From assembly GCA_032986305.1 (NCBI GenBank), contig GCA_032986305.1_3672.1: a stretch of DNA of 64,000 nucleotides; one strand, given 5' to 3'. The position numbers and the translations under genes were made by a program. The DNA comes from a phage. Below are positions 10,491-42,117 of the stretch, piece after piece (positions within the stretch are counted from its first letter, which is position 1; each line of letters begins with the position of its first letter). The notes below the pieces were generated by a model that was given only the letters and a program-made list of their open reading frames with translations, had not been told where the DNA came from and searched no databases.

Positions 10491-10500
10491 CTATAAAAAG

Positions 10501-10530
10501 AAAGGGGCCAAACGGCCCCTTTTTATTTAC
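10501..10530. terminator. bidirectional rho-independent terminator at the convergent junction
   Basis: aaaggggcc-aaac-ggccccttt hairpin flanked by T-runs on both strands, between the plus array (ends 10490) and the minus giant gene (ends 10538). Confidence 0.65.
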
Positions 10531-10537
10531 CCCCTTG

Positions 10538-17968: not shown

Positions 17969-17977
17969 GATTTCTCC

Positions 17978-18244: not shown

Positions 18245-18253
18245 TTACCCTCT

Positions 18254-24123: not shown

Positions 24124-24134
24124 ATCTCGCCGCC

Positions 24135-25625
24135 TTAAATAGTTTGTTGGAAAGTTATATTACTTTCGTCGAGGTCAAACACCTCGGTCATGTTCGCAAC
24201 GATATCGTTTGTCGTGTAAGCTTCATCAGAAGCTCCTACTGGTTTAACTTGAATTACCAGTCTATTAAATCTACCTATCGACACAGCAGCGGATGCAGCA
24301 CCGACCAATTGGATATTGTACAACGTATCTGCAACATCAAGTCCGTTAACAACCTGCAAAAGAGCCTCTACAATGGCATCTTTTTCGGTTGTGGAAAGCG
24401 CAGCGCCGGAATAGGTAATTCTTACATCTAGGCGGTAGGTATTTGCCCTGGAGTAATAAATTCTTTCAGTTTGACCGTCAGATGTAGTGATATCGTAGAA
24501 AATATTACCATAAGTCCTGTTCGTACAGGCTATAGTTTGGTAAAGTGCTTGGCAAATGTCCTCCGTTGCACCACCAAACACAACCACTTGGAACTTGTAA
24601 GGAGGTATACCTTTAGCATCAGTTTTATCGGTGTTGTTGGAGAACACTCTCACTTTCTCAACACCTTTTACCTCGCTTACAGCGCTAAGGATTGCAGGAC
24701 GGGTAGCCTTCGATGTTAACTGTTTTGTGCTGGAAGCTCTTAAGCGATACTCTGAGTCTTTTTCAACATCCCTTCCCTCATTGAATCTTTCTCGGTTGGT
24801 AAGCTTGATAAATCCACTGGGAGTAGGTGACATTGTTGTCACGGTTTCTGCCTCTCTTGACAGCTCACCAGCCTCGTTGGCGATAACATCTAGGGTGATA
24901 GTTCTTTCCCCTACAATCGGGGATACTCTGAAATCTACCCTACTATTAAGTCCAACTTGATCAAGATTCGAATTGTACCCTATCCACAACGTTCCTGTCA
25001 ACATATCGATCTGAATCAAATCGTCGTTCAACAGGGTTGTATTATCGACAATGAATTGCTTAATCTCTCCGTAAAAGCTTGGCAGATCAGAAGAGTCCAG
25101 AGCCTTATCTGTTAAAACCAGACTTTTTGTTTTGATACTTCCATCTGTCTGGTTGGTAATTTGAAAGTTGTATTTCCCAATTCTTAGATCTGGAGCGTTT
25201 ATCCTGTGAGCAATAAGATTCCCTGCTACCTGCACGTCATTGCTAAGAACAAAGTTCCCACTGTCTAATGTGTAAGTTTTGGAATCGTAAATCATGTTGT
25301 ACGGCACAGTTGTGTTGATCGTCAACTGGCAGGTACCTGATGATTTAGAACGGCCTCTTCGGTAAATACCCTGTCTTCCAAGAAGTTCATCTAGGTAAAT
25401 ACCTTCTGCCCCATACAGCGTCTGCGATGCGTATACAGATGCTGCCATAAGAATAAGTTGATACTCTCGCTCGTTGAAGATAGTGGTTAGCTTATCTGCA
25501 ACGGAGTTACTCTGTACGTTGAAGTTTTCGCCAAAAGCACGGATCAGGCTTTGCTTAGTTTCAACGATTAGGTCATTTAGGGTTGGTATAACGAAACCAG
25601 CCTCTGTCAATCCATACTTAGCCAC
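24135..25625 (-). CDS. baseplate J-like protein (putative)
   Basis: N-terminus MAKYGLTEAGFVIPTLNDLIVETKQSLIRAFGEN resembles the conserved start of gpJ/gp6/XkdT baseplate proteins. Confidence 0.5.
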   Translation of the reverse strand: MAKYGLTEAGFVIPTLNDLIVETKQSLIRAFGENFNVQSNSVADKLTTIFNEREYQLILMAASVYASQTLYGAEGIYLDELLGRQGIYRRGRSKSSGTCQLTINTTVPYNMIYDSKTYTLDSGNFVLSNDVQVAGNLIAHRINAPDLRIGKYNFQITNQTDGSIKTKSLVLTDKALDSSDLPSFYGEIKQFIVDNTTLLNDDLIQIDMLTGTLWIGYNSNLDQVGLNSRVDFRVSPIVGERTITLDVIANEAGELSREAETVTTMSPTPSGFIKLTNRERFNEGRDVEKDSEYRLRASSTKQLTSKATRPAILSAVSEVKGVEKVRVFSNNTDKTDAKGIPPYKFQVVVFGGATEDICQALYQTIACTNRTYGNIFYDITTSDGQTERIYYSRANTYRLDVRITYSGAALSTTEKDAIVEALLQVVNGLDVADTLYNIQLVGAASAAVSIGRFNRLVIQVKPVGASDEAYTTNDIVANMTEVFDLDESNITFQQTI

Positions 25626-25693
25626 GTCACTCCTCCGGTATGAAAATCTCTACAAGGTATTTTACCAAATTTTGTAACAATAGTCAATCTGAG

Positions 25694-25722
25694 CATAAAA
25701 ATAAACCCCGCCGAAGCGGGGC
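25694..25722 (-). terminator. rho-independent terminator
   Basis: Minus-strand hairpin gccccgc-ttcg-gcgggg followed by TTTATTTTTAT, directly after the 1279-aa gene. Confidence 0.65.
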
Positions 25723-25730
25723 TTTAAAGG

Positions 25731-28700
25731 TTAGTCGTGAGACTCGTTCCAAGGTCCTTGGAAGCTTGAGTTAGAACGGCTTACCACAACAGTAGGGCAG
25801 GATATTGCGACCCCTGTTACAGAAGACGTTGACCATGGTGTGTAGATTTCAACAACAATATCTATGGTTTGTTCACCAAGACCTGTTATCCCTACCGCAC
25901 ACATGCCGTTGTTGTCGTTTCCGTACTTCTTACCTGCAAGGATTTGATGTCCGGCTATCCAAACGTTGAGCTGGGAGCTGGCAAGAGTACCATTCAGTTT
26001 AAAGAAGAATGTTACGTTCTTACCCTGACCTGAAACGTTATCTACGTATCTCCACCTCCAACGGCAAACCCTTTGCTGGGAGTTATATACTGGAGCACAA
26101 TCCCCGTAAGTCCTGTGTGCAACAATTGCACCTTCGAACTGGTTAGCACGGATAACAGAAGCTTCTACACGACCACGGAAGGTACCTCCGGTTGCATCTA
26201 TGGTGCCCCTAAAGCTACCATTATTGGCATAAACATCCCCACGGAAGGTACCACTAGTGGCGTTAACTGCCCCTGTGAAGTTACCAGAACTAGCGTTGAT
26301 GTTGCCTTTCACCCACACATCCATAAATTGGGCGTGCCCGTTCTTGTTAATATACCAACCGTATTTATGGTACCCGTTGCCATCGTAGTTGTTTGACGAG
26401 ATTTCTTGTGCGATCTTGGCAGAGGAGATCGTGCCATTCTCTATAAAAGCGTCTTTCAAGAACGCTTGGTTGTTCTTGATTGCGAAAGCAAGGGTTGCTG
26501 TTCCATTTCCTGGGTTGTATACCGCAAAATTGTTTGCACTAACCATGAAGTAGGATTGAACTTGGCCTCCAGACCCTTCCATCCCCAACTGAATACCTGC
26601 AACATATTTATTCCCTGCGGAGTCTACCTGTATTTTTGTGCCCCATTGAGCATTTACTTTACCCTCTAAGTCGGTTACAGCCTTAGATGTTGTAGCTACT
26701 GCAGCCCTGATCTCAGACACATCCCCAACATCATCCATGATCTCCTGCTTAGCAACAGCAAGTTCTTGACGAATAGCTGACGCTGTGCCGTTGATAAGGT
26801 CCACAGTGGCTTTGTTGGTATCGGAAATTGTAGCATCCAGCGCTGTTTTTGTGGAGGTCAGTTTTCCATCCAAAGCATCAATCGCTTGCTTGTTGGTAGA
26901 AATCTCCCCACGTGCAGAAGTTATCTGCTCTGACAGTGCAGATGTTTTCTGATTCAGCAGGTCAGTGGTGGCCTTGTTGGTATTGGCAATCAAGGTGTTG
27001 AGGTCAGTTTTTGCGGTAGTTATCTTTCCGTCAAGGGTGGTATAGTTTTTAGATACCGTCGCGTTTGTCTGACTAATCTTTTGATCCAGAGTTTCAGATG
27101 TCCTGTTCAGAAGATCTACAGTGGCTTGGTTAGTGCTCAAGATGCTTGCGTCAAGTTCTGTTCTCTGAGTATTGATCTTACCATCCAGAGTTTTATCTCC
27201 GGCTAAATACCCGCTCTCAACTCCATCTATCTGCTCTACCAGCTCACCTTTGGCGGCAACCAATTTCTCATCTAAAGCCTCTGTCTTTTTGTTCAGAAGA
27301 TCAGTAGTTGCTTTATTGGTTGTCTCAATCAGAGATGCCAATCTTCCACTTTCAGTGTTCAGATCGTTGGTGAACTTGTTCTGTGCAGCAACAAGTTTCC
27401 TATCCAGCGCTGTGATATTGCCATTGACATCCTCAAACTTCTGAGTTGTCTCTGTAACTACCGCACCTATTCTGTCTCCAAGTTGCTGGAATGCCTCATC
27501 TACCCTACCATCCATGTATTTATTAAGCTCTGTGACACGATTTTCAACCCCTTCAATAGAGGAATCCAAAGTGCTCATCAACTCTTTATAAGTTTCTGTC
27601 TTTTTGAATTCAGCATCTATCTGAGGCATCAAATCCTCGATAGAGGTGTAGCAGCGTGCAGCGCATTCTACAAACTGAGAGCTACCAAAAGCGTTTGTGG
27701 TTCGAATATACCAATAATAAACCTTATCGTTCTGCAGGCCTTCAGATGTCCAAGTTGAACCAACACCCATACGGGTGGCGTTTGAAGTAATGGTTGCATC
27801 ACTGGTATCTGGCAATCTTGTCATCCCAGATGTCCAAAAGTCATACTGGGTGCTTACACTAGCCAAGTCTCTGCTGTGCGGGATCAAGGTGATAGCAAAG
27901 TATCCCTGCTTAACCTCTACAGAAACCGGAGCTTCAGGTGCCTGAATGTTAAACTCGCAGTACGCTTCTGGAGATACACCGCCTTTATAAGATGTTGCAA
28001 CCACGGTTGCTGTGTATGACCCTTTGGTCAATCCTTCTACGCGGACAAACTGCTCGACTGTTTGTGCTGTCCAAATAATCTCTCCGTTCTTTCTTACCTG
28101 CACAATGTTTTGAGCATAAGTCCCAACGTTGTCCCAAGCCAAAACACCGTGCGTCACTTCCCCAGCTTGAAGAACAGAGTATCTGAAGTTTTGCGGTTGA
28201 GCTACACCAGATGGAGATATCGGAATATTTACATCTCCAGAGTCTGGAAGTTGCCCTGTGGCATCATTCCACTCTTTAGCATCTTGACGGAGTTTTACCT
28301 TGACACCGCCCTTTTTGGTGAACTCCCATTCAAGAACCCTCATTTCTTGGCCTACTATACCAATACTTGGAAGGTCCATCGTAACGTAACGCCCAGGTTT
28401 AAATTTAAAACCTCGCATATTGCAGGTTACTTCAATAATCCTGCCAGCTCTGGCACGTCTTAAGAATATTGCAGAAACACGTTGAGCCTGATAAGGACTG
28501 GTAACAAAACGATAATCTATATCAATTATCTTTCTTTCTCCGTCCTTCTCCACCCACTCAGGAACGAACACTGATGGGAAGTCTGTTTCAGAATACCCTT
28601 TGGTTGGACTGGTGAATCTGCCAGTTATTGTGTTGGATCTTTTGTCAAATGAGGCTTCCGGATAGATCTTAACCTCACCACAGACACAGTCCTCACTAAG

Positions 28701-29570
28701 TGTCATTGTTGCCGGACCATAGTATGCACCAACTAGTAAACCATACTTACCAGCAACATAACTAAGATCTGCACCGCAAGCTTTCAGCATTTCTGCCATA
28801 ATACTTGCTGGGGCCTCATCCATGTCAAACTCACCATTAATGGTGTAACGACGCTCACTGGTTCCGTCTGCGTTTCTTACAGCCTCGTCACATATGTTGG
28901 CAGCTTCCTTGAAGGACTCCCAGTTGATAGTTTCGTCGGGACATTTGAGGTACGTTCTTAGATAGTCCAGAATCACCAAGGCAGCGTTATTGGTATACAC
29001 CTCCTTACTGATACGAGGATCATAACATTTTTTACCAACCTTGACGAGTGTAACGTTTGGCAACCCAAAAGGAAACTTGTTAGGGTCAAACTTGAAGCTG
29101 GCACGTAGCCAACTGATCCCTCTGCCTATCATGTCTGGTGACCATGAAGGGCAGTGTGTGCCCATGAAAGGATCAGAGGTTTTCCTGTCGTTATGTAACT
29201 CCCACGATACCAAATCGCCATACGAAGAAATAGGATTACCGTCGATAAGTATATCTTCTATGCCTTCCAAGGGATGATTAGCAAGAACAATAGCACAATG
29301 AAGGGTTCTGTCCCTGTCCTGCTCCAAAAACGCAAGCAATCCAGATGTGCGTGTCTTTCCATATACTACAGAGCAAGGTGCAGCAGAAGATCTGAGAAGC
29401 TTTTGTCTATCTTGCTGACTTCTGTAAGATTTGTTGCCCTCGAAAATCTTATCCAGAGTTCTGGTGGTAACAGTGTTCAGGCTGTCAGCCAGAGCTGCCT
29501 TGGATGCGTTCCAGTCATAACTTGAAGATCTTGCAGAAGCAACGATGTTATCAATCATTGCAATTGGCAT
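25731..29570 (-). CDS. lambda gpJ-like central tail fiber / tip attachment protein (1279 aa)
   Basis: Segments recalled as gpJ-like: YRFVTSPYQAQRVSAIFLRRARAGRIIEV, FN3-like YDFWTSG ... VYYWYIRTTNAFGSSQFVECAA, and KYVAGIQLGMEGSGGQVQSYFMVSANNFAVYNPGNGTATLAFAIKNNQAFLKDAFIENGTISSAKI; long coiled-coil in the middle. Confidence 0.65.
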   Translation of the reverse strand: MPIAMIDNIVASARSSSYDWNASKAALADSLNTVTTRTLDKIFEGNKSYRSQQDRQKLLRSSAAPCSVVYGKTRTSGLLAFLEQDRDRTLHCAIVLANHPLEGIEDILIDGNPISSYGDLVSWELHNDRKTSDPFMGTHCPSWSPDMIGRGISWLRASFKFDPNKFPFGLPNVTLVKVGKKCYDPRISKEVYTNNAALVILDYLRTYLKCPDETINWESFKEAANICDEAVRNADGTSERRYTINGEFDMDEAPASIMAEMLKACGADLSYVAGKYGLLVGAYYGPATMTLSEDCVCGEVKIYPEASFDKRSNTITGRFTSPTKGYSETDFPSVFVPEWVEKDGERKIIDIDYRFVTSPYQAQRVSAIFLRRARAGRIIEVTCNMRGFKFKPGRYVTMDLPSIGIVGQEMRVLEWEFTKKGGVKVKLRQDAKEWNDATGQLPDSGDVNIPISPSGVAQPQNFRYSVLQAGEVTHGVLAWDNVGTYAQNIVQVRKNGEIIWTAQTVEQFVRVEGLTKGSYTATVVATSYKGGVSPEAYCEFNIQAPEAPVSVEVKQGYFAITLIPHSRDLASVSTQYDFWTSGMTRLPDTSDATITSNATRMGVGSTWTSEGLQNDKVYYWYIRTTNAFGSSQFVECAARCYTSIEDLMPQIDAEFKKTETYKELMSTLDSSIEGVENRVTELNKYMDGRVDEAFQQLGDRIGAVVTETTQKFEDVNGNITALDRKLVAAQNKFTNDLNTESGRLASLIETTNKATTDLLNKKTEALDEKLVAAKGELVEQIDGVESGYLAGDKTLDGKINTQRTELDASILSTNQATVDLLNRTSETLDQKISQTNATVSKNYTTLDGKITTAKTDLNTLIANTNKATTDLLNQKTSALSEQITSARGEISTNKQAIDALDGKLTSTKTALDATISDTNKATVDLINGTASAIRQELAVAKQEIMDDVGDVSEIRAAVATTSKAVTDLEGKVNAQWGTKIQVDSAGNKYVAGIQLGMEGSGGQVQSYFMVSANNFAVYNPGNGTATLAFAIKNNQAFLKDAFIENGTISSAKIAQEISSNNYDGNGYHKYGWYINKNGHAQFMDVWVKGNINASSGNFTGAVNATSGTFRGDVYANNGSFRGTIDATGGTFRGRVEASVIRANQFEGAIVAHRTYGDCAPVYNSQQRVCRWRWRYVDNVSGQGKNVTFFFKLNGTLASSQLNVWIAGHQILAGKKYGNDNNGMCAVGITGLGEQTIDIVVEIYTPWSTSSVTGVAISCPTVVVSRSNSSFQGPWNESHD

Positions 29571-30007
29571 TAATACCTCCAGACATCAACAACGATAGAA
29601 TCTTTCATATCGAACGTAAAGATCCCTTTATCACCTTTCGCCCAAATCTGGTTGTTCCAAAACACACCAGCGGTGAGGCCGTTCAGACCTTCGAAAATAA
29701 CAATATCACCACGCTGGACCTGTTTAGGAGTATCCAGTCGAGTCAAAAAGAGATCAAAAACAGTAGGTAGGTGTGTGGTTTTGAAACGAAGCATGCACCA
29801 TCTCTTGCTTTCCAACTCTGTTTTATACGTTCCTTCAAAGTTAGAAAGAAAATCTGTTCCGTATTGGGCATCAACACACTTAGCAGCAAAAGTGCAACAA
29901 TCGTGGAATCCCCATTCAAACGGGACGGTGGCTTCTTCGTCAAATACTTTCCACAACCTTTCTTGCCAGTCTACTAAACGAGGATGTGTGCTCATTAAAC
30001 CTCCCAA
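29570..30007 (-). CDS. hypothetical protein (145 aa), possible peptidase-like tail-tip protein
   Basis: WGFHDCCTFAA and RGDIVIF are weakly NlpC/P60-like; no clear catalytic His. Confidence 0.35.
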   Translation of the reverse strand: MGGLMSTHPRLVDWQERLWKVFDEEATVPFEWGFHDCCTFAAKCVDAQYGTDFLSNFEGTYKTELESKRWCMLRFKTTHLPTVFDLFLTRLDTPKQVQRGDIVIFEGLNGLTAGVFWNNQIWAKGDKGIFTFDMKDSIVVDVWRY

Positions 30008-30561
30008 ATGATCGGGCGGCTCGCCACCTGATCTACATATTTAAAAAATCTGTCATTATCGTTTCTTGAACTATGGCTTTCCTCTGTGTATCGATAAGGA
30101 AAACCTCTTAACCAACTGTTGAAGATGGAAGAGATGGATATGGACAGAGCACTATTCTCCCCTGTCTGAATAGCCATGTCTGTTATAAGGCCGTCAAACA
30201 AGCCATTAGTTGTGACAGGTAAACCATTCTCCATAGCGGTGATATATAACGTGGCACGGCAACCAGAGTACTCCGTCTTCAGTAGATCGCCAACATATTT
30301 AGGATCAAACCCGTTCAATGTTGCTACCACAGATCCGAAGTTGGTGGCATCTTTCTCAGACACAGCAGTCAATGTTGCTGATCCACCTATCCCTATAAAA
30401 TGTTGCCCCTCAATAACCACAACACCAGTTCCTGAGCACACCCTGACAGTCCCTGTTGGCAGCTCTAGCTTTGCAGCAATTAAGATCTCAACACCATCAA
30501 GCTCTAGCTTTTCAAGAAATAAATTATCTAATGGCGCTCTTATCATCTTAGAAATCCTCAA
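29995..30561 (-). CDS. hypothetical protein (188 aa)
   Basis: ORF overlapping neighbours in the same orientation. Confidence 0.4.
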   Translation of the reverse strand: MRISKMIRAPLDNLFLEKLELDGVEILIAAKLELPTGTVRVCSGTGVVVIEGQHFIGIGGSATLTAVSEKDATNFGSVVATLNGFDPKYVGDLLKTEYSGCRATLYITAMENGLPVTTNGLFDGLITDMAIQTGENSALSISISSIFNSWLRGFPYRYTEESHSSRNDNDRFFKYVDQVASRPIIWEV

Positions 30562-31138
30562 AGAAGTTGATAACTATATTATCACCTTTCTGCATAGCAT
30601 CAACCTTTTGCTTAATTTTATAAAGATCTCGGATATGAAATCTACCCTTCGGAGATTGAGTTATTATTTTCATGGTATCCCCTGCGGCAATAGGTTTCCT
30701 AAGTCTTGGGGATATGTTTATAACAGCGGCCCCAACACCATCACTTCGTACTGAGGCTGTCACCACTTTCAACTCATCATTGACAGATATTTTATCCCCA
30801 GCTCTGGCTATATCCCTGTTAGGCTCCCAACCAACCGTCTTCAAAAAATCGTCGTTACCAGTTGGTCCAAGAGCGATTGGCTCGTTGGAGGTCACTGAAT
30901 GCCCATAAGCCTTGATAAGAAAAATATTTCCATCTTTGTAAACCTGATCAACAAAACTTTTAAGCTCCAACAACTGAGACTCGCTGATATTGGAAACCGT
31001 CAAAGTGCCTTTCCAGTTAGGCGTGGCATAGGTGACTTTTTGCGTCTTACCTGTAAACGGGCTTTTAAATGTAACGATGTCTGCCAGTAGCTCCAGTCTA
31101 ATATCTGGAAGGTATCTAGGCCTTTCCCATAAAAACAT
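30548..31138 (-). CDS. hypothetical protein (196 aa), possible minor tail protein
   Basis: ORF; weak resemblance to lambda gpM-like minor tail proteins, from memory only. Confidence 0.35.
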   Translation of the reverse strand: MFLWERPRYLPDIRLELLADIVTFKSPFTGKTQKVTYATPNWKGTLTVSNISESQLLELKSFVDQVYKDGNIFLIKAYGHSVTSNEPIALGPTGNDDFLKTVGWEPNRDIARAGDKISVNDELKVVTASVRSDGVGAAVINISPRLRKPIAAGDTMKIITQSPKGRFHIRDLYKIKQKVDAMQKGDNIVINFFEDF

Positions 31139-31200
31139 TGTGCCTCCCGGTTAACAATTATGATAGTTATTTTACCAGATTTTAAGTTAATACGCAATAC

Positions 31201-31226
31201 AAACAAAAAGCCCCCGCCGAAGCGAG
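31201..31226 (-). terminator. rho-independent terminator
   Basis: Minus-strand hairpin gccctcgc-ttcg-gcggggg followed by CTTTTTGTTT; loop and stem closely resemble the 25694-25722 terminator. Confidence 0.6.
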
Positions 31227-31235
31227 GGCAATACT

Positions 31236-31568
31236 TTAAAGTGCTTCCAAGGTAGATACTGATTGGTCGAACATGTTCAACCTTATCGGATCTACAACTT
31301 TTCCGCTTTTCGAGACGATGTTTTCTGCATCCTCGTCTAGAGCCAGAACGTTGACATAAAACAATTTACTTTTCTCGCAAACTGGGTAGACAACCATGTT
31401 GCCAAACTCGTCCTCGGCCTCATAAGTGTCTTCAGTTTCTGTGTAAATGAGCCCGACAACCTCTACAAGAAGGGTGTTTTGCAACACCTCATTCTCGTAA
31501 AAGCCGATTTCGTCCATGAAACCATTAAAATCCTCCCTGTCAGTAAACCCAAGGGTAAAAGTATTCAT
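31236..31568 (-). CDS. hypothetical acidic protein (110 aa)
   Basis: ORF, start overlaps the stop of the 1479-aa fiber gene. Confidence 0.4.
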   Translation of the reverse strand: MNTFTLGFTDREDFNGFMDEIGFYENEVLQNTLLVEVVGLIYTETEDTYEAEDEFGNMVVYPVCEKSKLFYVNVLALDEDAENIVSKSGKVVDPIRLNMFDQSVSTLEAL

Positions 31569-34500
31569 TATTCAACACTCTCCATCATAAGCTGGGTGTC
31601 TGTCAATGCAGAGTTCCAAACTCTTACATCTTTAATATGACCAAACAAATGTCTTTCTCCTGTCGCTGTTTGACCGCCGAGACGGATGAGAGCGCCTCCT
31701 GCCAGGAATTCCCAAGAAGATTGTGTTTCCGTGCTCACCAGACCGTTGGCAAAAGAGCAGGTTTTACCATCTTCTTTTATCCTGAACCCCATCTTCAACT
31801 TACGTGCTTTAGCCATCTCATAAACACGTCTGTTTGAACCACCAATATCGCAATATGGATAACCATCTTCTGCAATATTCGCTGCAGAGCCAAACCCCAT
31901 GATAAATGCAGCGCCGGATTGATGACCCTCTGTATCAATAACCCTAGGAGCTGCGTTAGGAGCTTTTCCCCAACCTCTCCAGTTGGCATCCACAGTAGCG
32001 GCGATGGTGAACGGTCTAGGTGCTAAATTATCAGTCATTGGGAATTTACAAAGGTCTGCTGCCCTAGTCACTGGTGAAGACCCTGTAGGGATAAACGAGG
32101 ACTCACAAGATCCTAACTCAAACTGAGGTATTGCGACGTCAATCCAATCCCCTGCGGCGTGTTGAGAACCCTCCGGCGGGGCAATCTGGAACTGGCACCC
32201 AATATTCATGTCAGAGGCCACTGCCTCAAACGTAGCAACAACCCTTATCCAAGCAGGTCCGGCTGTTTGCCATCTCTCAGCTTTTACTTTAATTCTCCCG
32301 GCTGCACCACCTGTTGTTTTAACTTCAAGTGTTGACAGGTTAACATAGGCATCACCCTGGAATACTGTGGTGGATCCGTTATACATGTCGAATCTTACAC
32401 GCAGTCTCTGGTGAGCTTTACCACCTCTTGCAATAATAGATCCAGTACAAAATTTCTCAGCACCTGTTACATCTGCACCTCGGGTGGCTGGAACTGTAGC
32501 CAGGTTTAACGCCGTTGTTTCTACACCGGATACGTTGCTTACTGTAAATCTTGCACCTTTTGTGCCGTTGGTGTTTGTTACAGTGTTGCCGACCGTAATC
32601 TGTGACTGGGCTCCCCATTTGCTCGGGTCTTCACTGTTAAGCATCAGATTTGTCCTTTGACCTTCAATGAGCAGACCATCTCTTTCGAAACGTGGTTGGT
32701 TTGCCTGTGCAACAGCCATGACACCGCGCTTAGTGAAATATGTTGCTGTAGAAGGTCTGGAGAACACCATCTCACCTTCACCTAGTACAGGTTTTAGATT
32801 AGAGGTTAAAGGCAACCACAGGTCAGGCATGACTGGGGCAGTTGTACTTTCTGGGAAGCTCGTTCTCTTCCAAGGGCTCCAGTTCATTCCGCTGCCAGTG
32901 TTATTATAGTACCTTTCCCACGTTCCCCCAAGATACATTTTATATATCTGGACACAACCTGTACCTTCGTTGGCAGAGTTTCTAAGCACGATCAGCGTAC
33001 CAGCCATCTGCTGCCCTGGTGGGTAGTGTCTTTCCGCTGTGGCGTTGGCATTTGCCTCTTGATGGTAAATACCTTCGCGATCCGCTTTGTAATCGTTAAG
33101 GTCACTAGTCCCCAACCCTTGACCACGGTGCTGAATAACTTTGTTCCACGCTCTGTGGTTACCCTGCTCTATGGAACGGGTGTACAGCTGATCTAAACGA
33201 CCTGCCATCTGGAAAGCATAGTTTCCAGAAAACGCCACAGACAGACCGCCAACAACCATCGAACCTTCTGGCCCGTTGACGTTGCCAGCCATTATTTTGG
33301 ACGGATTATTATTTCCGAACTGGTTGTTCCAGTCTGCACCTGTGTGGCATACAAAACCACCAGGGGCCGAGAAAGTACCGTCTTTGTTGAAATTGTAGAA
33401 TCTGTGAGCGGAACCTACAACATCACGAACAATAACTTGACCAGCTTCTGGAGTAGACCTGAACTCTGCTTGGCCTTGGAGGCCAGCACCATTGCCGCAT
33501 TTAGAGGTAAACGTACCGTTAGTCAGGTCATCTGTCCCATCCGATGCGCACTGGAATCCTGCATTAGAGAATAACGCCTTTCTAGGACTGCCGTAGCACA
33601 AATAATCAATACCGTCTGCCCATAGCTCGACTTTTGGCATGTTCATTTTGCTCATCACCGCATAGCGTTCAGCAGTGCCTATATAGTGCCACTGTGTGCC
33701 GCCACCAGTGTAGAACCCAGAGGTACCTTTGAAGTCAACAATAGGTCTGGTGTTGGTATTGTTATCTCCAAGAACAGCCAGATTTAAATCTGCTGACTGG
33801 AGAGGTGCAACGAACTTAACACCGTCCTGATTGTTTGTTACAGAGCCAACTTGATAATCTTGCTCTCTGGTAAACACTTCGACAACATTTCTACTTGCGT
33901 ATATGCTGACAGGGAAAGCACGAGCCTCTGCATAGAAAGCAACATACTCTTGTTTACCCCTTGTCGGAGCAACCATCCCAAGAAGTGCTTTTTCATTTTG
34001 ATAGAAATTCACTACCCCGTAGAAAGAGTCCCCTCTATCTGTCCAACCGCCAGTTCTATAGTGGCACTGTAAGGTGGCGCAGTTCATAGGGTCACCGCCA
34101 GATGACGATCTGGTGACTAAGGTAATATCAGTGCCAGTTGCTGGAGCATAATACGGATCTGTTCTAACGATGATTGGGTAATATTTCCCATCTTCCATCC
34201 CTGCAGTTCTTGGCAGTGTTAAGAAATCTTTGACACCCGCAGCTATAGGAACTTTGAACAGATTCTGAGCATCTGCCAGGGTTGTAGCCCCTGTACCACC
34301 TGCAGCTTGAGGTAAAGGCTCCCACTTGGCCTTCCGGTTGTTATAAACACCCCACTCAAGCGTTCCTTCACCTTGCTCGTCCATACCGCCATCCCAGATG
34401 ACCATCTTGGCGGCTTTCTTAGATCCCCAGAAACCTCTTTCTGCTCCTGAACTGCGGATCCATTCTCCAAGTCCCCAGTTTGCCATCTGACCGTTCAGAT

Positions 34501-36007
34501 CACCAACCTGCATATATTTAGGACAATCTAAGACCCCATCCTCACGGAAACCTAAATATCTATGAGTTTCAGATCCTTTTGCACCTTTGTGCAGGTGGAT
34601 TGTTAACCACGCCCTATTGTCGTTTCTTACCTCGGAGTAGATCCTATAACCATGTTCAAGAACACCATCGGTGTTATATTTATCCCCATGGAGAATACCT
34701 GAAGCAGATTTAACATCTCCTGAGTATTGAGCTAAGTAAAGGTGCCCGAAAGCAGGGGAGTTGTTTTTACCAAGGCCGATATGAGATCTGAAGGTGTCAT
34801 CATTCCGAGGTCTGACCATCGGCTGCCATGCAGTCCACTGGTTTGTGTTGGCCTGATAGGTTCTCAAATACCAAACATCCACGTTAGAGAATGGATAGTA
34901 TTCCTGACGACAGCCTGTGCCACCGTTAGCATTGTTCTGCCAAACAATCAGGTGACCAGCACCAGAACCTGCAGGATAACCATTTGCCTCAGTTGCATTA
35001 GCAGTCATCGGCTGGTAGTATATGCCGTCCTGATTACCAGTCAAGTTATTGATATTGAAATTTTCCTCAAGGGCTGCACGTTGCTTATAGAAAGCACCGA
35101 TATTGATACGGACTCCAGCAGCATCTCTGGCTCCTGTACCGCCTTGCTCTATAGCAAGAGGTTGCCACGAGGCTGTTTGTTGGTTCCACATACCCCAACG
35201 ACCTGCTGCATCAAGCTGCAAGTACCCTGCCGTGTTTAAATCATCTCCGGCACGGATAACTGTTCTTGTTGGGTTGTTTGCCTCCAGGCGTTTAAATTCA
35301 TCACGAAGTGCTATTCTTTTTGTTGTTGCTACACCGTTGGTTACTGCAATGGTATACATGGCTCCAGAGGTAGCGCCACGGAAAACACCATCAACAGTCG
35401 TAGTATCACGACGAGATACCACACCGTTCAGAAATTTTTCACCAGCTGCTTCAGAAGGGTAGTTAGTAGTTCTTCCCTCTTCAATAACTGCAGGACCAAC
35501 AAAGTTGACAAGGTGAATAACATCACCTACAGTATGCACTGTACCAAAATCTACCCGCTGTGCAAGCGCTTTAGCATCGTTGGCTGTCTGAACCGTAACA
35601 TCCATTACATCCTGTACAGACTGCCCCTCGGCTGTCATGATCATAGATGCGCCAATGGTAGACTCCAGCTCCTCCCTTAAGGACGGGTCTGTATACACCA
35701 TCCATGCAGCGTCGGTGATCCCACCGTCAGAGTATGGTGAAGACAGTGCAGGAACAGTATGTGGAAATTCGCCTTTCCAACGCAGGTAGAGGTCTTCCTC
35801 TTCGAAGTAGGCAAAATCCATTGGGCCGTTTAACTTACCACCTTCCTTAAAGGAGATTACATGAGAAACAGTCCCATCCACATGGACAACATCGCCAATT
35901 TTTACACGACGGGTCAGGTCTGGTTGTTGAACAACCAGGTAATCATCCTCTGTCACTGCGGTAGTGGCAGGAAGAGATTCAATTCTGACAACTTTAATAT
36001 CAGCCAT
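31568..36007 (-). CDS. long tail fiber protein (1479 aa) with shared N-terminal attachment domain
   Basis: N-terminal about 100 aa homologous to the 38642..39310 product (DDYLVVQQPD..TRRVKIGDVV / FKEGGKL..DFAY); internal GGTGATTLADAQNLFKV and QGGTGARDAAGVRINIG fiber-type repeats; AGGAG before ATG. Confidence 0.65.
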   Translation of the reverse strand: MADIKVVRIESLPATTAVTEDDYLVVQQPDLTRRVKIGDVVHVDGTVSHVISFKEGGKLNGPMDFAYFEEEDLYLRWKGEFPHTVPALSSPYSDGGITDAAWMVYTDPSLREELESTIGASMIMTAEGQSVQDVMDVTVQTANDAKALAQRVDFGTVHTVGDVIHLVNFVGPAVIEEGRTTNYPSEAAGEKFLNGVVSRRDTTTVDGVFRGATSGAMYTIAVTNGVATTKRIALRDEFKRLEANNPTRTVIRAGDDLNTAGYLQLDAAGRWGMWNQQTASWQPLAIEQGGTGARDAAGVRINIGAFYKQRAALEENFNINNLTGNQDGIYYQPMTANATEANGYPAGSGAGHLIVWQNNANGGTGCRQEYYPFSNVDVWYLRTYQANTNQWTAWQPMVRPRNDDTFRSHIGLGKNNSPAFGHLYLAQYSGDVKSASGILHGDKYNTDGVLEHGYRIYSEVRNDNRAWLTIHLHKGAKGSETHRYLGFREDGVLDCPKYMQVGDLNGQMANWGLGEWIRSSGAERGFWGSKKAAKMVIWDGGMDEQGEGTLEWGVYNNRKAKWEPLPQAAGGTGATTLADAQNLFKVPIAAGVKDFLTLPRTAGMEDGKYYPIIVRTDPYYAPATGTDITLVTRSSSGGDPMNCATLQCHYRTGGWTDRGDSFYGVVNFYQNEKALLGMVAPTRGKQEYVAFYAEARAFPVSIYASRNVVEVFTREQDYQVGSVTNNQDGVKFVAPLQSADLNLAVLGDNNTNTRPIVDFKGTSGFYTGGGTQWHYIGTAERYAVMSKMNMPKVELWADGIDYLCYGSPRKALFSNAGFQCASDGTDDLTNGTFTSKCGNGAGLQGQAEFRSTPEAGQVIVRDVVGSAHRFYNFNKDGTFSAPGGFVCHTGADWNNQFGNNNPSKIMAGNVNGPEGSMVVGGLSVAFSGNYAFQMAGRLDQLYTRSIEQGNHRAWNKVIQHRGQGLGTSDLNDYKADREGIYHQEANANATAERHYPPGQQMAGTLIVLRNSANEGTGCVQIYKMYLGGTWERYYNNTGSGMNWSPWKRTSFPESTTAPVMPDLWLPLTSNLKPVLGEGEMVFSRPSTATYFTKRGVMAVAQANQPRFERDGLLIEGQRTNLMLNSEDPSKWGAQSQITVGNTVTNTNGTKGARFTVSNVSGVETTALNLATVPATRGADVTGAEKFCTGSIIARGGKAHQRLRVRFDMYNGSTTVFQGDAYVNLSTLEVKTTGGAAGRIKVKAERWQTAGPAWIRVVATFEAVASDMNIGCQFQIAPPEGSQHAAGDWIDVAIPQFELGSCESSFIPTGSSPVTRAADLCKFPMTDNLAPRPFTIAATVDANWRGWGKAPNAAPRVIDTEGHQSGAAFIMGFGSAANIAEDGYPYCDIGGSNRRVYEMAKARKLKMGFRIKEDGKTCSFANGLVSTETQSSWEFLAGGALIRLGGQTATGERHLFGHIKDVRVWNSALTDTQLMMESVE

Positions 36008-36042
36008 TCTTTCTCCTGAAAGGGGGCAAACAGCCCCCTATG

Positions 36043-38640
36043 TTAAAGGTACAATCCACGGTATTGAGCATAAAGTCCCAGACCGCGAAGGATTTCGCCA
36101 GAGTGATAGCCTACCGGATCAGAAACTGCCCAGCAGCCGTTTAAAACATTATCCCCGTTAATGAAGTGGTGCTTTTGCAGTAACTTCACACAGGCTTCTA
36201 CAACAATATCTATTTGAGGTATTGTCTCTGAATACCCGCACAGACCTAGCCAGCAGCAACCTGCAAGCCATTCACCTACCACCCACATCCTGTCCCCTCT
36301 GTCTTGATAAGAATATCCACCAGAGGTGTTAAAGTCTGTAGGTAGATTTCCTGAGTGAGAGGACTGGAATCTGTTGAGGAACCATGCCCATTTCTGGCAG
36401 AACAGGAACAGTCTTTCATCAACAGGTTCTTTATGTTTCTTAAGCTCATATAGTGTGCGACACGCAGCAACAAAGGCTCTTGATTGGAGTTTAGAGTTAT
36501 CTACCATCTCCCACCAACCAGTCAACCCCTCATTACCTCTCTGCCATACGTAGCGGGATGCAACTGGTCCTTCTGTTTTAAATGTGTTATTATACCAAAC
36601 TTGGGAGTCGTACATAAATCCAATCGTATTTGCCAATCTTTGACGATCTATGTTTTCCGCACCCATACAGTAGACTACCGGATATTGCATTCCGGGGTAG
36701 GGCCAATTTGGCCTTTCCTCTAGAAGATAATTTTCCTTATCTATCACCTTTCCGGCAGGGAACACACCTGGAGTGTGTCTGTATGCGCCTTGCTTGTAGT
36801 TTCTGACATAGCAATCACCAACCTTGGCTGTTGATTCTGTCTTGCTTGCCATCCATACACTAAACCAGATCAGATAAGCATCCCTATCTGCAACATAAAA
36901 TTGTGGCAGCGTGTTGACGCAATACAGATCGAACAAGCCATTGCCTATCTGCCTGTCGCTCAGATTGAAATCTACAGAGGTAATTCCTTTAGGGTTAGCA
37001 AAGAAAGGTTTAATCTCATCTTCTGTGTGATGAGGTTGTGTTGGGTCTAGTTTAAAATCACCTAGGGTAAGAGTTTCTGTTATCCATTGTCCATTAGTGG
37101 CATATAGATCAGCATACCATAACCAACGGTCTTTGTCAAGAAATTTGACCCTTATCATCTCATCATCTGATCGATAAGTTACTGAGTTTAAAGAAATCTC
37201 TCTTCCAAAATTGAAAGTTACCTTGCCTCTTGCTATGTTGCAACGGGTGAAGTTGTCGGAGTGGTTATAAATGTCGGTATCATACTGCATACTAACACTA
37301 GCGCCACCGCTTACGACAATGTTTTCCTCTTTTGGTAAGAGATACGGGTTACCATCTTTACCAACCACCTCTACGAAATCAGTAACCTTGGCAACTGTCT
37401 CTGTTACCTCTGCCCCTCCAAAAGGGACACCTATCCTATACTGTTTTTTGTTATTGTTGCCATCGTTAAGGATGAAGTGTGGCTGGAACAGAACCCCTTC
37501 TCCTCCGAAATTCATAACAATTTCAGCATCTCTGCCTATCTTGTATGTAGTCCCTTTTTGAATTATTTCGCAAGGCTGACGTGCGTTCATTCTAAAATTG
37601 ATATACCCGTCGCTGTCCCTGCTCATGACAGGAACTGTTCCTGCGACTAGACAAGTACCATCTGTGAACGGTGCCTTAATTAACGTGGTCTTTCTAAACA
37701 GTTTGTCGTAGGCATTTATATCGCTGAAATTAAGCAGCTTATTATAAGACTGCTTAAACGCGGTGTAATACTTTTCCTCACCTGTCAAGGTGTAGAGTTG
37801 ATAACAAGCGTCACACCACATTTCTTCCCCGTCCAACTCTGGGGCTTGATTGTCTGCAACCACGTTTATAGGATTTACAATTACAGGGGATCCAGCAGGT
37901 ATCACTGATCCACCCTGCTCTTGTGGCAATCTCACACAGTAGGTTACCTTGTGGCTGCCTGTAACACCCTTATCCTGCAGTTGGATTGTGCCGAACTCTA
38001 CAGACGTATGACCGCTGTCGGCTATGCTACCGTTAGCCCAATAGCGATTACCATCCCATGCTATATACCACTCAACCCACCAACTTAACCCAGATGTTGT
38101 CCAATTTGGGTTAGCATCTGTGCCGCCGTAAACATCAGAGTCTACAGTGTTTCTTCCTAGCACACCGTTATACGCTTGGAATGCCTTATCTAGGTATTCA
38201 CCCCATGTCGGAGATCCGGCTGGGATTTTTCCTCTACCATTGGTAAAAGACACCACTACATCTTTAAACCCGCCATGTGATGGAACCCCATCTGTGGATA
38301 ATGGGTAGTGGGACAATCTTTGCATTTTACTTTCTACTGCATAGGCACCCAGAAGATGACTGTTGTAGGCTTCCCAAGCTTCTTTGGCCCTATCTAGGTA
38401 AAAATCGCTTTTTGATGCCCTGTATGCCTCAATGTACCCCAGAATCAACACAGCCTGAGCTTCATGCATTGCCCAATCATTATTTATCTTACTTCCTGAC
38501 CAACCTGACGCTATAAGTCCATCCTGGTTTACCAGTTTGTTCTGCGTGGGGAGATTGGTAATGCCTGTGTTGTTATCGAGGCACTTCCTGTGCCCCTCAA
38601 TCATCTGAAATACGTTATCAATGTTGTGTTGAATACGCAT
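36043..38640 (-). CDS. tailspike-like protein (865 aa), possible glycan depolymerase module
   Basis: No N-terminal attachment domain; Trp/Tyr-rich, possible glycoside-hydrolase-like regions (speculative); start overlaps the stop of the attachment-domain gene. Confidence 0.45.
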   Translation of the reverse strand: MRIQHNIDNVFQMIEGHRKCLDNNTGITNLPTQNKLVNQDGLIASGWSGSKINNDWAMHEAQAVLILGYIEAYRASKSDFYLDRAKEAWEAYNSHLLGAYAVESKMQRLSHYPLSTDGVPSHGGFKDVVVSFTNGRGKIPAGSPTWGEYLDKAFQAYNGVLGRNTVDSDVYGGTDANPNWTTSGLSWWVEWYIAWDGNRYWANGSIADSGHTSVEFGTIQLQDKGVTGSHKVTYCVRLPQEQGGSVIPAGSPVIVNPINVVADNQAPELDGEEMWCDACYQLYTLTGEEKYYTAFKQSYNKLLNFSDINAYDKLFRKTTLIKAPFTDGTCLVAGTVPVMSRDSDGYINFRMNARQPCEIIQKGTTYKIGRDAEIVMNFGGEGVLFQPHFILNDGNNNKKQYRIGVPFGGAEVTETVAKVTDFVEVVGKDGNPYLLPKEENIVVSGGASVSMQYDTDIYNHSDNFTRCNIARGKVTFNFGREISLNSVTYRSDDEMIRVKFLDKDRWLWYADLYATNGQWITETLTLGDFKLDPTQPHHTEDEIKPFFANPKGITSVDFNLSDRQIGNGLFDLYCVNTLPQFYVADRDAYLIWFSVWMASKTESTAKVGDCYVRNYKQGAYRHTPGVFPAGKVIDKENYLLEERPNWPYPGMQYPVVYCMGAENIDRQRLANTIGFMYDSQVWYNNTFKTEGPVASRYVWQRGNEGLTGWWEMVDNSKLQSRAFVAACRTLYELKKHKEPVDERLFLFCQKWAWFLNRFQSSHSGNLPTDFNTSGGYSYQDRGDRMWVVGEWLAGCCWLGLCGYSETIPQIDIVVEACVKLLQKHHFINGDNVLNGCWAVSDPVGYHSGEILRGLGLYAQYRGLYL

Positions 38641-38641
38641 C

Positions 38642-39310
38642 TTAGATAGCTCCTGCTATAATCAGTGCCCCGTACCAAGTTAGCCCGTTGTCGTAGGTTT
38701 CTAACTTGAAAATATCTGTTGCACCAGCTGTAAATGTTAGGATAGGATCTCTTCCGTATGCCCATTTAACATTATCAGGCCAATAGACTTTGTTGCCTCC
38801 AGAGGTCTGAGTAATGCATACGGTTATAGTTCTCGCCACCCCTTCAAGGCCTTCTGTTTGATTTTCAAAAGAGATTGTGGTATTTGAAGTTAGTCGAACT
38901 TTAAAAGTGTCCGCAACTTCAAGATCCATATCAAGCTGACCACCAATAGATCCGTAATCAACTATTCTGCCAGAAGAAGTTGCAGCAAGCTCCCCAAAAA
39001 CAGACCAGGCTTTTGCAGACACACCCCCAGCACCCTCTACAGTAGAGTCTGGAAGGATTATTTTAGGATAATCCCCGTTCCACGTGTAGTAGCGCTTGGT
39101 CTCTGGGTCATAAGCAAAGTCCTTCTTGCTCTTAAGATAACCACCCTCTGTGAAATAGACTATTTTGGTAATGCTGAGATCGTTGACAACATCGTCAATC
39201 TTAGCCTTTCTTGTCCCATCAGTCTGATTGACAACCAAGAAGTCATCACTCAGGACTGTTTCTGCATCTTCAAGATCTGGAATTGGTATTGTAGGATAAG
39301 CTACAGCCAT
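38642..39310 (-). CDS. fiber attachment-domain protein (222 aa)
   Basis: Homologous to the N-terminus of the 1479-aa fiber; directly upstream of the 865-aa gene. Confidence 0.5.
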   Translation of the reverse strand: MAVAYPTIPIPDLEDAETVLSDDFLVVNQTDGTRKAKIDDVVNDLSITKIVYFTEGGYLKSKKDFAYDPETKRYYTWNGDYPKIILPDSTVEGAGGVSAKAWSVFGELAATSSGRIVDYGSIGGQLDMDLEVADTFKVRLTSNTTISFENQTEGLEGVARTITVCITQTSGGNKVYWPDNVKWAYGRDPILTFTAGATDIFKLETYDNGLTWYGALIIAGAI

Positions 39311-39319
39311 GATTTCTCC

Positions 39320-40036
39320 TTAGTTAACATCAATAGCACGACCAGACTGGTTGGCAATAGCCTCATCATTAGAGGTAGCAATAACACCAGAGTATTCGCG
39401 CTCATCTGGAGCAAGCGTCCAGGTATTGCGGTTAATGGTTTGTTCTGCCTCGGTCATCAGCAGATCTTTATCCTGAGTCAACAGAGAGCCGACAGGGATC
39501 GGGTTTTCCATCTCAGGACCAGCATACTGGTTCCACCATGTGGCATCTCCGGTTCTAGGCAACCTGAAGTTGATCAGGTAATACAGTTTATTAGCCCACT
39601 TAATCCAACCTTCATCATCACATAGAGAGGTTGTCCCAGAATCAGGTTGTGGATAGGTAAACTGATCAAGACCTACGAAAGCAAGTCTTACAATCTCGTT
39701 CTCCTTGGTAACAACCTCAAAGAACGCTTGATATGTTCTCGATCTTCGATCCATGGTAGATTGGAAGTTTATGATGTTTAGCACATCCGGCTCTTGTCTT
39801 GCCACTTCCATAATCTTGTTATCAAGAACAGTCTTCATGACTTTCTTGCTAAGAAAGTCCATATAAGGGAAGCCAAACAATTCGTCAAAGTACCAGCTCC
39901 CTTTCCAGGTATTAAACCTCATCCACAGGCGCTGGCGCAGACTTACTTGGTTCGAGTCTATCAACTTAAGACCTTTGTCTATCGCCAAATCGCCTGTCTG
40001 TGGGTCCATCAATATATCACTATAAAGCGTAGCCAT
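39320..40036 (-). CDS. gp25/gpW-like baseplate wedge protein with C-terminal extension
   Basis: MATLYSDI ... SLRQRLWMRFNTWKGSWYFDELFGFPY ... ARQEPDV fits the gp25 family pattern (T4 gp25 also begins LYSDI; EPRI-like motif). Confidence 0.55.
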   Translation of the reverse strand: MATLYSDILMDPQTGDLAIDKGLKLIDSNQVSLRQRLWMRFNTWKGSWYFDELFGFPYMDFLSKKVMKTVLDNKIMEVARQEPDVLNIINFQSTMDRRSRTYQAFFEVVTKENEIVRLAFVGLDQFTYPQPDSGTTSLCDDEGWIKWANKLYYLINFRLPRTGDATWWNQYAGPEMENPIPVGSLLTQDKDLLMTEAEQTINRNTWTLAPDEREYSGVIATSNDEAIANQSGRAIDVN

Positions 40037-40048
40037 GCAAGCCCTCTA

Positions 40049-42104: not shown

Positions 42105-42117
42105 TACACGCTCCCCC

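Follow-up and report, generated by a model that had tools for sequence, protein, structure and literature searches.

Results

Gene content of the locus

We analysed a 64,000-nucleotide (nt) stretch of phage DNA (GenBank assembly GCA_032986305.1, contig GCA_032986305.1_3672.1; hereafter the window) and within it a block of 13,580 nt at positions 25731-39310, in which eight genes, all on the minus strand, lie between the gene for a gp25-like sheath initiator and that for a Baseplate_J wedge protein. These genes are numbered B1 to B8 in transcription order and their coordinates are given in Table 1. The region is the already published multi-fibre host-attachment locus of rV5-like Escherichia coli phages and corresponds, with the same gene order, to the gp36-gp44 region of rV5, with the tape-measure/hub genes on one side and the short tail fibre genes on the other. 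The last four genes of the block, B5-B8, appear from their sequences to form a complete siphovirus tail-tip (hub) gene set, of a type that is as a rule confined to phages with non-contractile tails, in a contractile-tail phage already equipped with a hub, a spike and a tube initiator.

An earlier note, written from the DNA letters alone, had described the block as an adsorption island acquired within a conserved baseplate operon. The open reading frames (ORFs) that it listed were all found in place on the minus strand, and its baseplate assignments for the flanking genes (gp25-like, spike, hub and J) were each backed by hidden Markov model searches. Inspection of start codons and Shine-Dalgarno sequences indicated that B6 and B7 are likelier to encode 183 and 141 residues (aa) from ATG codons than 188 and 145 aa. 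Searches with tblastn matched the sheath-initiator gene in phi92 (gp139), KE22, CR3 and Hena1, and the Baseplate_J flank protein was 32%-60% identical to those of relatives. In phi92, gp139 was identified as the sheath initiator through cryo-electron microscopy (cryo-EM), which also covers the wedge protein gp146 (PMC13450770).

Relatives were aligned to the window segment 24000-42000. The 18-kb segment was collinear from end to end with at least 110 GenBank Vequintavirus records at 92%-96% nucleotide identity, and comparison with rV5-type genomes gave a gene-by-gene correspondence to EmilHeitz, Gotham, FV3 and nomo. A recent insertion or deletion within the genus is ruled out by this collinearity; the earlier note had proposed that comparative alignment might reveal the block as such an event, and what was found was an identical order in more than 100 genomes of the genus, an outcome which at genus level is the one that the note had named as refuting it. 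Eighteen unannotated GenBank records labelled "Campylobacter phage" (MG0656xx, host C. jejuni) were about 93% identical to the same segment, and are probably mislabelled or derived from contaminating coliphages.

Siphovirus affinity of B5-B8

Outside Vequintavirus the best tblastn matches to B5, B7 and the hub region of B8 were siphoviruses of 40-84 kb, with E. coli Queuovirinae (Seuratvirus, Nonagvirus) first, followed by phages of Klebsiella, Serratia, Providencia, Pseudomonas, Vibrio and Acinetobacter. Identity dropped from 80% or more in about 117-119 Vequintavirus records to 58% or less in the siphoviruses that came next, and counterparts of B5-B8 were absent from the seven more distant myovirus relatives which were mapped. 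The siphoviruses VogelGryff, Opt-155, K21lambda1, MR15 and Vibrio 1.004.O share the order tape measure protein, a protein of about 195 aa, a second of about 195 aa, one of about 140 aa and J, and B5, B6, B7 and B8 were 32, 38, 46 and 54% identical to the VogelGryff proteins (bas25_0017-0020). Neighbouring genes of the set are separated by 1-nt gaps or overlap in the window, where the set does not adjoin the tape measure gene; B5 is found some 12 kb further downstream, behind a putative promoter of its own. By these matches the ancestry of B5-B8 reads as clearly foreign, that is, siphoviral.

B5, the homologs of which are the first genes after the tape measure gene in all five siphovirus loci, is annotated as Dit-like on the basis of its PHROG label and synteny. 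Six-sequence profiles of B5, B6 and B7 gave no matches in the PDB and their hhalign comparisons with lambda M, L and K were not significant. The single-sequence AlphaFold (AF2) model of B5 had a pLDDT (predicted local distance difference test) score of 33 and no fold assignment was drawn from it. Word-indexed homolog searches with B5 and B6 returned near-identical sequences only, and longer B6 homologs, checked for a B5-like N-terminal domain which would link the two as a fusion, had none that could be detected.

The B6 model, with a pLDDT of 92, matched lambda gpL, T5 pb3, an RcGTA virion chain and the hub proteins of T1, Chi and JBD30, and on this predicted structure B6 is demonstrated to be a separate gpL-type protein with the hub domain I fold. 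A B6 profile matched aa 17-178 of T5 pb3, members of the B6 family matched PF09931, and the N-terminal profile of B8 matched pb3 aa 425-766 (E 4.8e-14) and lambda J aa 266-481 (E 0.012). Since B6 and B8 thereby cover successive parts of pb3, the pair is collinear with a single-chain siphovirus hub. A division of this kind is known from lambda-type tails, where gpL has hub domain I and gpJ has hub domains II-IV (PMC13243795). B7 carries invariant FxWGxxDCC and RGDxV motifs which align with motifs of lambda K (hhalign E 0.12) and has no invariant His; its position is that of lambda gpK and RcGTA g14, and the NlpC/P60-like character suggested by the motifs is unproven.

B8 matched lambda J in the PDB, and NCBIfam added just lambda_TipJ. 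Identity to the J-like tail tip protein of VogelGryff was 54% in the stretch aa 48-721, which takes in the N-terminal hub region, and 47% in aa 895-1095. The predicted architecture consists of hub domains, Ig domains, a long coiled coil, a Phage_Tail_Tip domain and a genus-specific distal head.

Selection, remodelling and presence in virions

The ratio of nonsynonymous to synonymous substitution (dN/dS) was determined for B5, B6, B7 and both ends of B8 against three genus members. Values were 0-0.07 at dS 0.09-0.66, core baseplate genes fell in the same range and B6 had no amino-acid changes at all. Selection thus shows that the function of B5-B8 has been retained.

In each of the five siphovirus J homologs compared, the first 45 or so residues are hydrophobic and rich in Gly and Ala, whereas the N-terminus of B8 is polar (hydropathy of the first 48 aa, -0.16 in B8 versus +0.50 to +1.81 in the homologs). 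The B8 coiled coil is longer than that of siphovirus J and length-polymorphic within the genus. The distal 140 or so residues of B8 occur in Vequintavirus only and are 83%-100% conserved there, which rules out a hypervariable distal head; the variable parts are the coiled coil of B8 and the tip of B3. The annotation of nomo splits the B8 ortholog into two ORFs (1022 and 183 aa), and some 0.8 kb of its coiled-coil region is missing (window 26800-27600; nomo 2232-5832), reflecting either length polymorphism or a frameshift.

Mass spectrometry of purified rV5 virions detected gp36, gp37, gp41, gp42 and gp43, the B8 ortholog gp37 by four peptides of which one lies in the hub region, and thin 70-nm fibres were seen in rV5 micrographs (PMC3606486).

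Terminators, late promoters and transcription units

Two hairpins, T1 and T2, occupy the sole large intergenic gaps of the block. Both have a TTCG loop followed by a T-run, with a stem of 8 bp, 7 of them GC, in T1 (31229-31210) and of 9 bp, 6 of them GC, in T2 (25724-25703). They are the two top-scoring terminator-like hairpins within 23000-42500, a segment in which the total of terminator-like sites was not above chance (18 versus 15.4 expected), and with a G+C-rich hairpin and U-tract at a gene end both would qualify as Rho-independent terminators. The string CGCTTCGGCG was found exactly twice in the window, at T1 and at T2, and the hairpins have CGCTTCGGCGGGG in common. Counterparts of both are annotated in Gotham as ARNold predictions. 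For rV5, Table S4 lists the T1 counterpart t041 at -19.8 kcal/mol, includes P040 (part C) and has P036 both as a sigma-70-like and as a late promoter, and Kropinski 2013 described 20 terminators as well as TggTAaAAtA as a putative motif of late promoters (PMC3606486).

When all intergenic gaps were folded, about eleven junctions of the late region, one every 3-6 kb, were found to have a G+C-rich hairpin, a T-run or a late-promoter-like motif, and TGGTAAAATA trails several of the hairpins. With at most one mismatch this motif gave 16 matches versus 5.4 expected, a count reached in none of 100 shuffles, and its four exact copies were all intergenic and all on the coding strand. In rV5 an identical CCCCGCTTCGGCGGGG stem-loop forms t003, and t052, t109 and t122 have the CTTCGG loop (PMC3606486). 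These hairpins elsewhere in rV5, with similar ones upstream of J in relatives which lack the block, rule out that the likeness of T1 and T2 is island-specific.

At the upstream edge of the block (39310/39320) no promoter or terminator was seen and B1 begins 9 nt past the sheath-initiator stop. On these grounds three transcription units would be assigned by position: one from the tube initiator to B4, ending at T1; one of B5-B8, from P040 to T2; and one from P036 through wedge J onward. B5-B8 alone would then be a self-contained promoter-to-terminator unit in the block. Among ten junctions compared, the T1/P040 and T2/P036 units were the most similar pair (score 91, z 8.8), the z score of either with any other unit of the window being at most 5.9.

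Further features were noted in the gaps. The short hairpin between B2 and B3 (Table 1) is possibly an attenuator or RNA-stability element within the first unit. The gaps at 17969-18253 (285 nt) and 58548-58830 (283 nt) are unusually long, have no ORF in the minus-strand late-gene list and have stable folds; RNA elements, or small ORFs missing from the list, may be present in them.

Table 1. Features of the window at and around the B1-B8 block, in order of transcription
Feature	Coordinates	Strand	Matches and remarks
Tape measure gene	43110-45452		Followed by myovirus tube initiator, plug, hub and spike
Baseplate hub	40726-41724	-	phrog_196 E 2.6e-83
Central spike N-terminal domain protein	40049-40726	-	Pfam PF18352 E 1.4e-9; the phi92 gp138 family
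gp25-like sheath initiator, 238 aa	39320-40036	-	phrog_120 E 2.5e-21; phrog_4233 E 9e-98; phi92 gp139 homolog
B1, fibre adaptor, 222 aa (rV5 gp43)	38642-39310	-	Tail_spike_N PF18668 E 3e-10; phrog_7760
B2, conserved fibre/scaffold protein, 865 aa (rV5 gp42)	36043-38640	-	phrog_2871; phi92 gp141 homolog
Short G+C hairpin GGGGGCTGTTTGCCCCC	36008-36042	-	Between B2 and B3; RNA fold -15.1 kcal/mol; only a short T-run
B3, fibre, 1479 aa (rV5 gp41 ortholog)	31568-36007	-	N-terminal Tail_spike_N PF18668 E 3.1e-10
B4, 110 aa	31236-31568	-	phrog_1361; 30% identity to VogelGryff bas25_0023
Terminator T1 (rV5 t041)	31200-31229	-	GCCCTCGC-TTCG-GCGGGGGC, then T-run
Late-promoter-like element P040	31157-31185	-	TGGTAAAATA motif at 31168-31177; upstream of B5-B8, putative driver
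B5, 196 aa	30548-31138	-	phrog_1302 "distal tail protein" E 3.7e-49; 32% to VogelGryff bas25_0017
B6, 183 aa	29995-30546	-	Hub attachment protein of the lambda gpL type with hub domain I (predicted)
B7, 141 aa	29570-29995	-	DUF6950 PF22262 E 2.7e-34; 46% to VogelGryff bas25_0019
B8, 1279 aa (rV5 gp37)	25731-29570	-	Ig_J, Ig_J_second E 1e-30; Phage_Tail_Tip E 1.2e-38
Terminator T2	25693-25724	-	AAGCCCCGC-TTCG-GCGGGGTTT, then T-run
Promoter P036	25658-25687	-	TTGACT-17-TAAAAT and TGGTAAAATA late motif; putative driver of wedge J and the genes after it
Baseplate_J wedge protein, 496 aa (rV5 gp36)	24135-25625	-	PF04865 E 4.8e-9; phrog_6 E 4.8e-45; phi92 gp145 homolog
Second wedge protein, 228 aa	23437-24123	-	phrog_4056 E 2.5e-103; tblastn to phi92 gp146 and relatives

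Genes B1-B4

B1 was 41% identical to a Seunavirus protein, and its C-terminal half 41% identical to phi92 gp140. B2, for which no Pfam or PDB sequence match was obtained, was 35% identical over its full length to phi92 gp141 and to a Seunavirus protein of 929 aa. These two genes, which have no promoter or terminator of their own, are the old part of the block. PDB matches of the B3 N-terminus are to the anchor domains of tailspikes, and this Tail_spike_N anchor is all that B3 has in common with the relatives mapped at the junction. In the distal part of the protein (window 31568-32770), a match to Rcc01080, the head spike fibre of RcGTA (PDB 6TB9, E 5e-8), spans aa 1080-1322, and aa 1060-1478 (about 420 residues) share 44% identity with the C-terminal end of the lateral tail fibre in the siphovirus VogelGryff. 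The VogelGryff match of B4, bas25_0023, directly follows that lateral fibre gene. In FV3 the stretch equivalent to window positions 31236-32650 or thereabouts, which covers B4 and about 360 C-terminal residues of B3, is swapped for another allele of the rV5 gp41 type; FV3 is without B4 and the boundary of the exchange is close to T1 (FV3 7047-11537). B4 travels with the distal allele of B3 and is possibly a fibre assembly or tip factor.

Occupancy of the gp25-like/J junction in relatives

Relatives were picked by tblastn with the J protein and their neighbourhoods mapped with all window proteins and the available annotation. The junction between the gp25-like and J genes, which holds the eight genes B1-B8 in this Vequintavirus window, was found without any gene in Cronobacter CR3 (Certrevirus; J identity 51%, 89-nt spacer), Erwinia Hena1 (Henunavirus; 56%, 96-nt spacer) and Vibrio VnaP (28%, 72-nt spacer). 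Aeromonas phiA019 (42%) has one gene there, encoding an 825-aa protein with no detectable homology to any block protein, and Rheinheimera Barba4A (26%) has an extended gp25-like protein and a pectate-lyase gene. Seunavirus KE22 (60%) has homologs of B1 and B2 and a Tail_spike_N protein annotated for colanic acid degradation, and phi92 (32%) has gp140 (similar to the B1 C-terminus), gp141 (similar to B2), gp142, the endosialidase gp143 and gp144.

Upstream of J, the spacers of CR3, Hena1 and KE22 each consist of a hairpin terminator and then TATGATAAAATA; the Hena1 hairpin, CCCGCTTCGGCGGG, nearly equals T2, and the cUUCGg hairpin design is also present upstream of J in Hena1, KE22 and phi92, all of which are without B5-B8. 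This shared spacer points to an ancestral order of gp25-like gene, terminator, late promoter and J gene, and the gene maps support repeated and independent addition of fibre genes at this operon boundary across Vequintavirinae and kin.

These comparisons revise the picture of the block given in the earlier note. Modular acquisition of adsorption cassettes holds for the subfamily, across which the junction is occupied by 0-8 genes, and for B5-B8 with their siphovirus affinity; within the genus the block is fixed. The block is not a single island and consists instead of three modules of different age, with B1-B2 common to Seunavirus and phi92, and the insertions fall at the boundary of an operon and do not interrupt one. 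The two terminators are real, a few bases from the positions first proposed (31201-31226 and 25694-25722), and their stems and loops are nearly identical as described, CGCTTCGGCG being common to both and unique to those sites. They enclose just B5-B8 and not the block, and they do not belong to it in particular: they are two of about eleven late-region junctions, T1 is listed for rV5 and both are annotated in Gotham, and the terminator-promoter unit upstream of J is ancestral, being found in relatives without the block. The compositional anomaly which had been looked for in G+C content and skew was not present in the block, and tetranucleotide usage was likewise normal.

Neighbouring fibre genes

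The gene at 21365-23437 (minus strand), downstream of the wedge genes, encodes a fibre protein of 690 aa whose domains (Pfam NCTSP_N, TIM-barrel_NCTSP) resemble those of N4 gp65. It is 42% identical to phi92 gp142, which sits inside the gp25-like/J junction, and by sequence this module lies on opposite sides of the wedge genes in Vequintavirus and phi92. Also downstream of the wedge genes are two paralogous short tail fibre genes (18254-19297 and 20312-21352, minus strand) and, beside them, a gene for a lambda gpK/Tfa-type assembly chaperone (19713-20297). An arrangement of paired short tail fibre genes with a chaperone is described in the BASEL paper (PMC8594841). The sheath initiator has 238 aa in the window, 205 in Seunavirus and 211 in phi92, versus 177 in CR3 and Hena1, neither of which has the block; the extension at the C-terminus goes together with B1/B2 and might serve them as a docking site.

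Discussion

The locus, its terminators and the late-promoter motif are already published. In a limited literature search we found no description of rV5 gp37-gp40 as a complete collinear siphovirus hub module, and no mention of their Queuovirinae affinity, of the gradient in junction occupancy or of the repeated flanking units.

The reading we prefer, with a probability of roughly three in four, is that the lateral-fibre (adsorption) locus of Vequintavirus was assembled stepwise at one ancestral terminator-promoter spacer between the gp25-like and J genes. B1 and B2, by position co-transcribed with the hub, spike and sheath-initiator genes, would form a conserved proximal fibre scaffold on the wedge, into which the B3 fibre probably plugs via its Tail_spike_N anchor, the distal tip of B3 and B4 being exchanged between genus members. 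A Queuovirinae-like siphovirus would have donated B5-B8 to the Vequintavirus stem lineage. Because the T1/P040 and T2/P036 units are so similar and T2 has a counterpart in relatives without the block, the simplest course would be entry at, or with duplication of, a terminator-promoter unit that underwent duplication or recombination at that event. Such an order of terminator and then late promoter would allow a separate expression level for each module.

As to what B5-B8 build, we would suggest a tube-less hub composed of a J-like trimer, a gpL-like trimer and a Dit-like ring, bearing a coiled-coil fibre of about 70 nm which may equal the thin 70-nm fibres of rV5, and mounted at the baseplate periphery as one lateral fibre. 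The genus-specific distal head of B8 would bind a conserved surface receptor, and the loss of the hydrophobic N-terminal segment may reflect a lost ejection-related role. Vequintavirus virions would then bear transplanted, tube-less siphovirus tail tips at the periphery of a contractile baseplate, re-tooled as receptor-binding organelles, a proposal that we advance tentatively and that may well prove wrong.

Several points weigh against the reading as a whole or its parts. The similarity of the units flanking B5-B8 could reflect shared functional constraint on hairpin, promoter and ribosome-binding site and not duplication. The G+C content, third-position G+C and tetranucleotide distance of B5-B8 are inside the range of random late-region segments, and therefore composition neither supports nor excludes an old transfer; it would agree with an event long ago, with a donor whose composition was similar, or with both. 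The direction in which the genes moved is read from their distribution and not from a rooted tree. For the Dit fold of B5 the evidence consists of the PHROG label and synteny, and for the NlpC/P60 nature of B7 of the motifs. A hub of this kind normally caps a tail tube and has no obvious means of docking on a wedge. Cryo-EM of two Vequintavirus phages placed just 3 of 9 annotated fibres and did not fix the virion position of the J-like protein, the lateral placement of which is inferred, and rV5 gp38-40 (the B5-B7 orthologs) were not among the 19 proteins recovered by low-sensitivity virion proteomics (PMC3606486).

With regard to origin, it could be argued that the fibre block is ancestral and that deletions brought the gp25-like and J genes together in CR3, Hena1 and VnaP, without any acquisition. 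Homologs of B1/B2 in three diverged groups (Vequintavirus, Seunavirus and phi92-like phages) do make that part of the block old, and deletion between repeated terminator-promoter units would be mechanistically easy. The adjacency is nevertheless seen in three separate lineages with J identities of 28%-56%, and gp25-like and J genes also adjoin in P2 (W-J) and Mu (gp46-gp47). Moreover, the inserts differ by lineage (the 825-aa protein of phiA019, the pectate lyase of Barba4A, the endosialidase of phi92), B5-B8 are confined to one genus with their nearest relatives in siphoviruses, and no remnants of B1-B8 remain in the 89-96 nt spacers, so that we hold an ancestral block to be distinctly unlikely. 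That the terminators mark the block as an autonomous and recently mobile island, with near-identical hairpins as insertion scars, we consider very unlikely: such an origin would account for the CGCTTCGGCGGGG shared by T1 and T2 and for the units flanking B5-B8 being the most similar pair tested, but the hairpins flank just B5-B8, the 39310/39320 edge has neither terminator nor promoter, identical or like hairpins recur at rV5 t003, t052, t109 and t122 and upstream of J in Hena1, KE22 and phi92 without the cassette, the block is fixed across a genus with synonymous divergence of up to 0.66, and its composition is unremarkable. Movement of the cassette from a myovirus to siphoviruses, or inheritance by both from a common tail ancestor, is scarcely credible. 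The siphovirus copies are in their functional setting, immediately behind the tape measure gene, in phages whose hosts span Escherichia, Klebsiella, Serratia, Providencia, Pseudomonas, Vibrio, Acinetobacter and Rhizobium, whereas among myoviruses the cassette was seen in one genus only, which is already provided with a hub, a spike and a tube initiator; the 54% identity to Seuratvirus J also far exceeds the fold-level similarity between the morphotypes.

With regard to function, B5-B8 may be late-expressed and yet form no lateral fibre, serving as a separate particle-like or decoy structure or as assembly factors, or persisting as a tolerated relic. This would agree with the failure to detect B5, B6 and B7 in rV5 virions, with a cryo-EM density that is assigned to none of the proteins and with a tube-less hub that offers no obvious docking surface. 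A relic is excluded by the dN/dS of 0-0.07, the set is kept in every Vequintavirus record sampled (about 117-119), its late promoter is of the kind used by other structural genes, and gp37 was recovered from rV5 virions with a peptide from its hub region, and on balance we think a non-fibre role unlikely. Stepwise assembly at the gp25-like/J spacer is thus the account that we retain.

The rV5-like phages are popular candidates for therapy and biocontrol for their broad host range. Reading rV5 gp37-gp40 as a single siphovirus-type hub-plus-fibre assembly would provide a concrete, testable assignment for four fibre genes, and the gp25-like/J junction, with its reusable terminator-promoter units, would be a natural site for host-range engineering. 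It would also mean that a multi-protein structural sub-assembly, beyond the receptor-binding tip, has been exchanged between non-contractile and contractile tails, which bears on the evolution of complex baseplates.

Comparison with known systems

The gene order of P2/Mu-type baseplates (spike, gp25-like, J, I-like) is recognizable in the window by its gp25-like and Baseplate_J genes (phrog_120, PF04865, phrog_6, phrog_4056); the gp25-like/J adjacency is broken here by 13.6 kb and kept in CR3, Hena1 and VnaP. The repeated hairpin and promoter units in the spacers bracketing B5-B8 resemble the PeSLs of T4-like phages, composite promoter-terminator motifs proposed to mediate modular shuffling (PMC2839356, PMC4122927). 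The promoter is an early one in PeSLs versus the rV5 late motif here, and recombination at the Vequintavirus units is proposed from similarity and position; no genus member without the B5-B8 cassette was present among the Vequintavirus records sampled. Branched tailspikes with Tail_spike_N anchors (CBA120 TSP1-4, G7C gp63.1/gp66) have the same PF18668 anchor as B1 and B3, but are compact enzymatic spikes, in contrast to the long fibre B3.

The block is the same locus, with the same late motif and terminators, as the "Swiss-army-knife" multi-fibre locus of rV5 and phi92 (PMC3606486, PMC8594841, PMC13450770). The multi-fibre "Swiss army knife" concept is established, and which gene makes which lateral fibre is stated there to be unclear (PMC8594841). 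A structural atlas paper has described one Vequintavirinae fibre with an N-terminal region "common in central tail fibers". In the rV5 literature the genes are given as a list of lateral tail fibre proteins, whereas here gp37-gp40 are read as a siphovirus hub set.

Among siphovirus tail tips (lambda gpM-gpL-gpK-gpI-gpJ, T5 pb9-pb3, RcGTA g12-g15, VogelGryff bas25_0017-0020), it is the four-gene Queuovirinae version which matches B5-B8 in order and tight coupling; relative to the lambda set no gpI homolog was identified in the module. The likeness extends to the predicted gpL/hub domain I fold of B6 and to the hub, J Ig and tail-tip domains of B8. B5-B8 differ from these tail tips in lying away from the tape measure and tube genes, so that by position they would not cap the phage's own tail tube, and in a B8 protein which lacks the hydrophobic N-terminal segment, whose coiled coil is longer and whose distal head is new.

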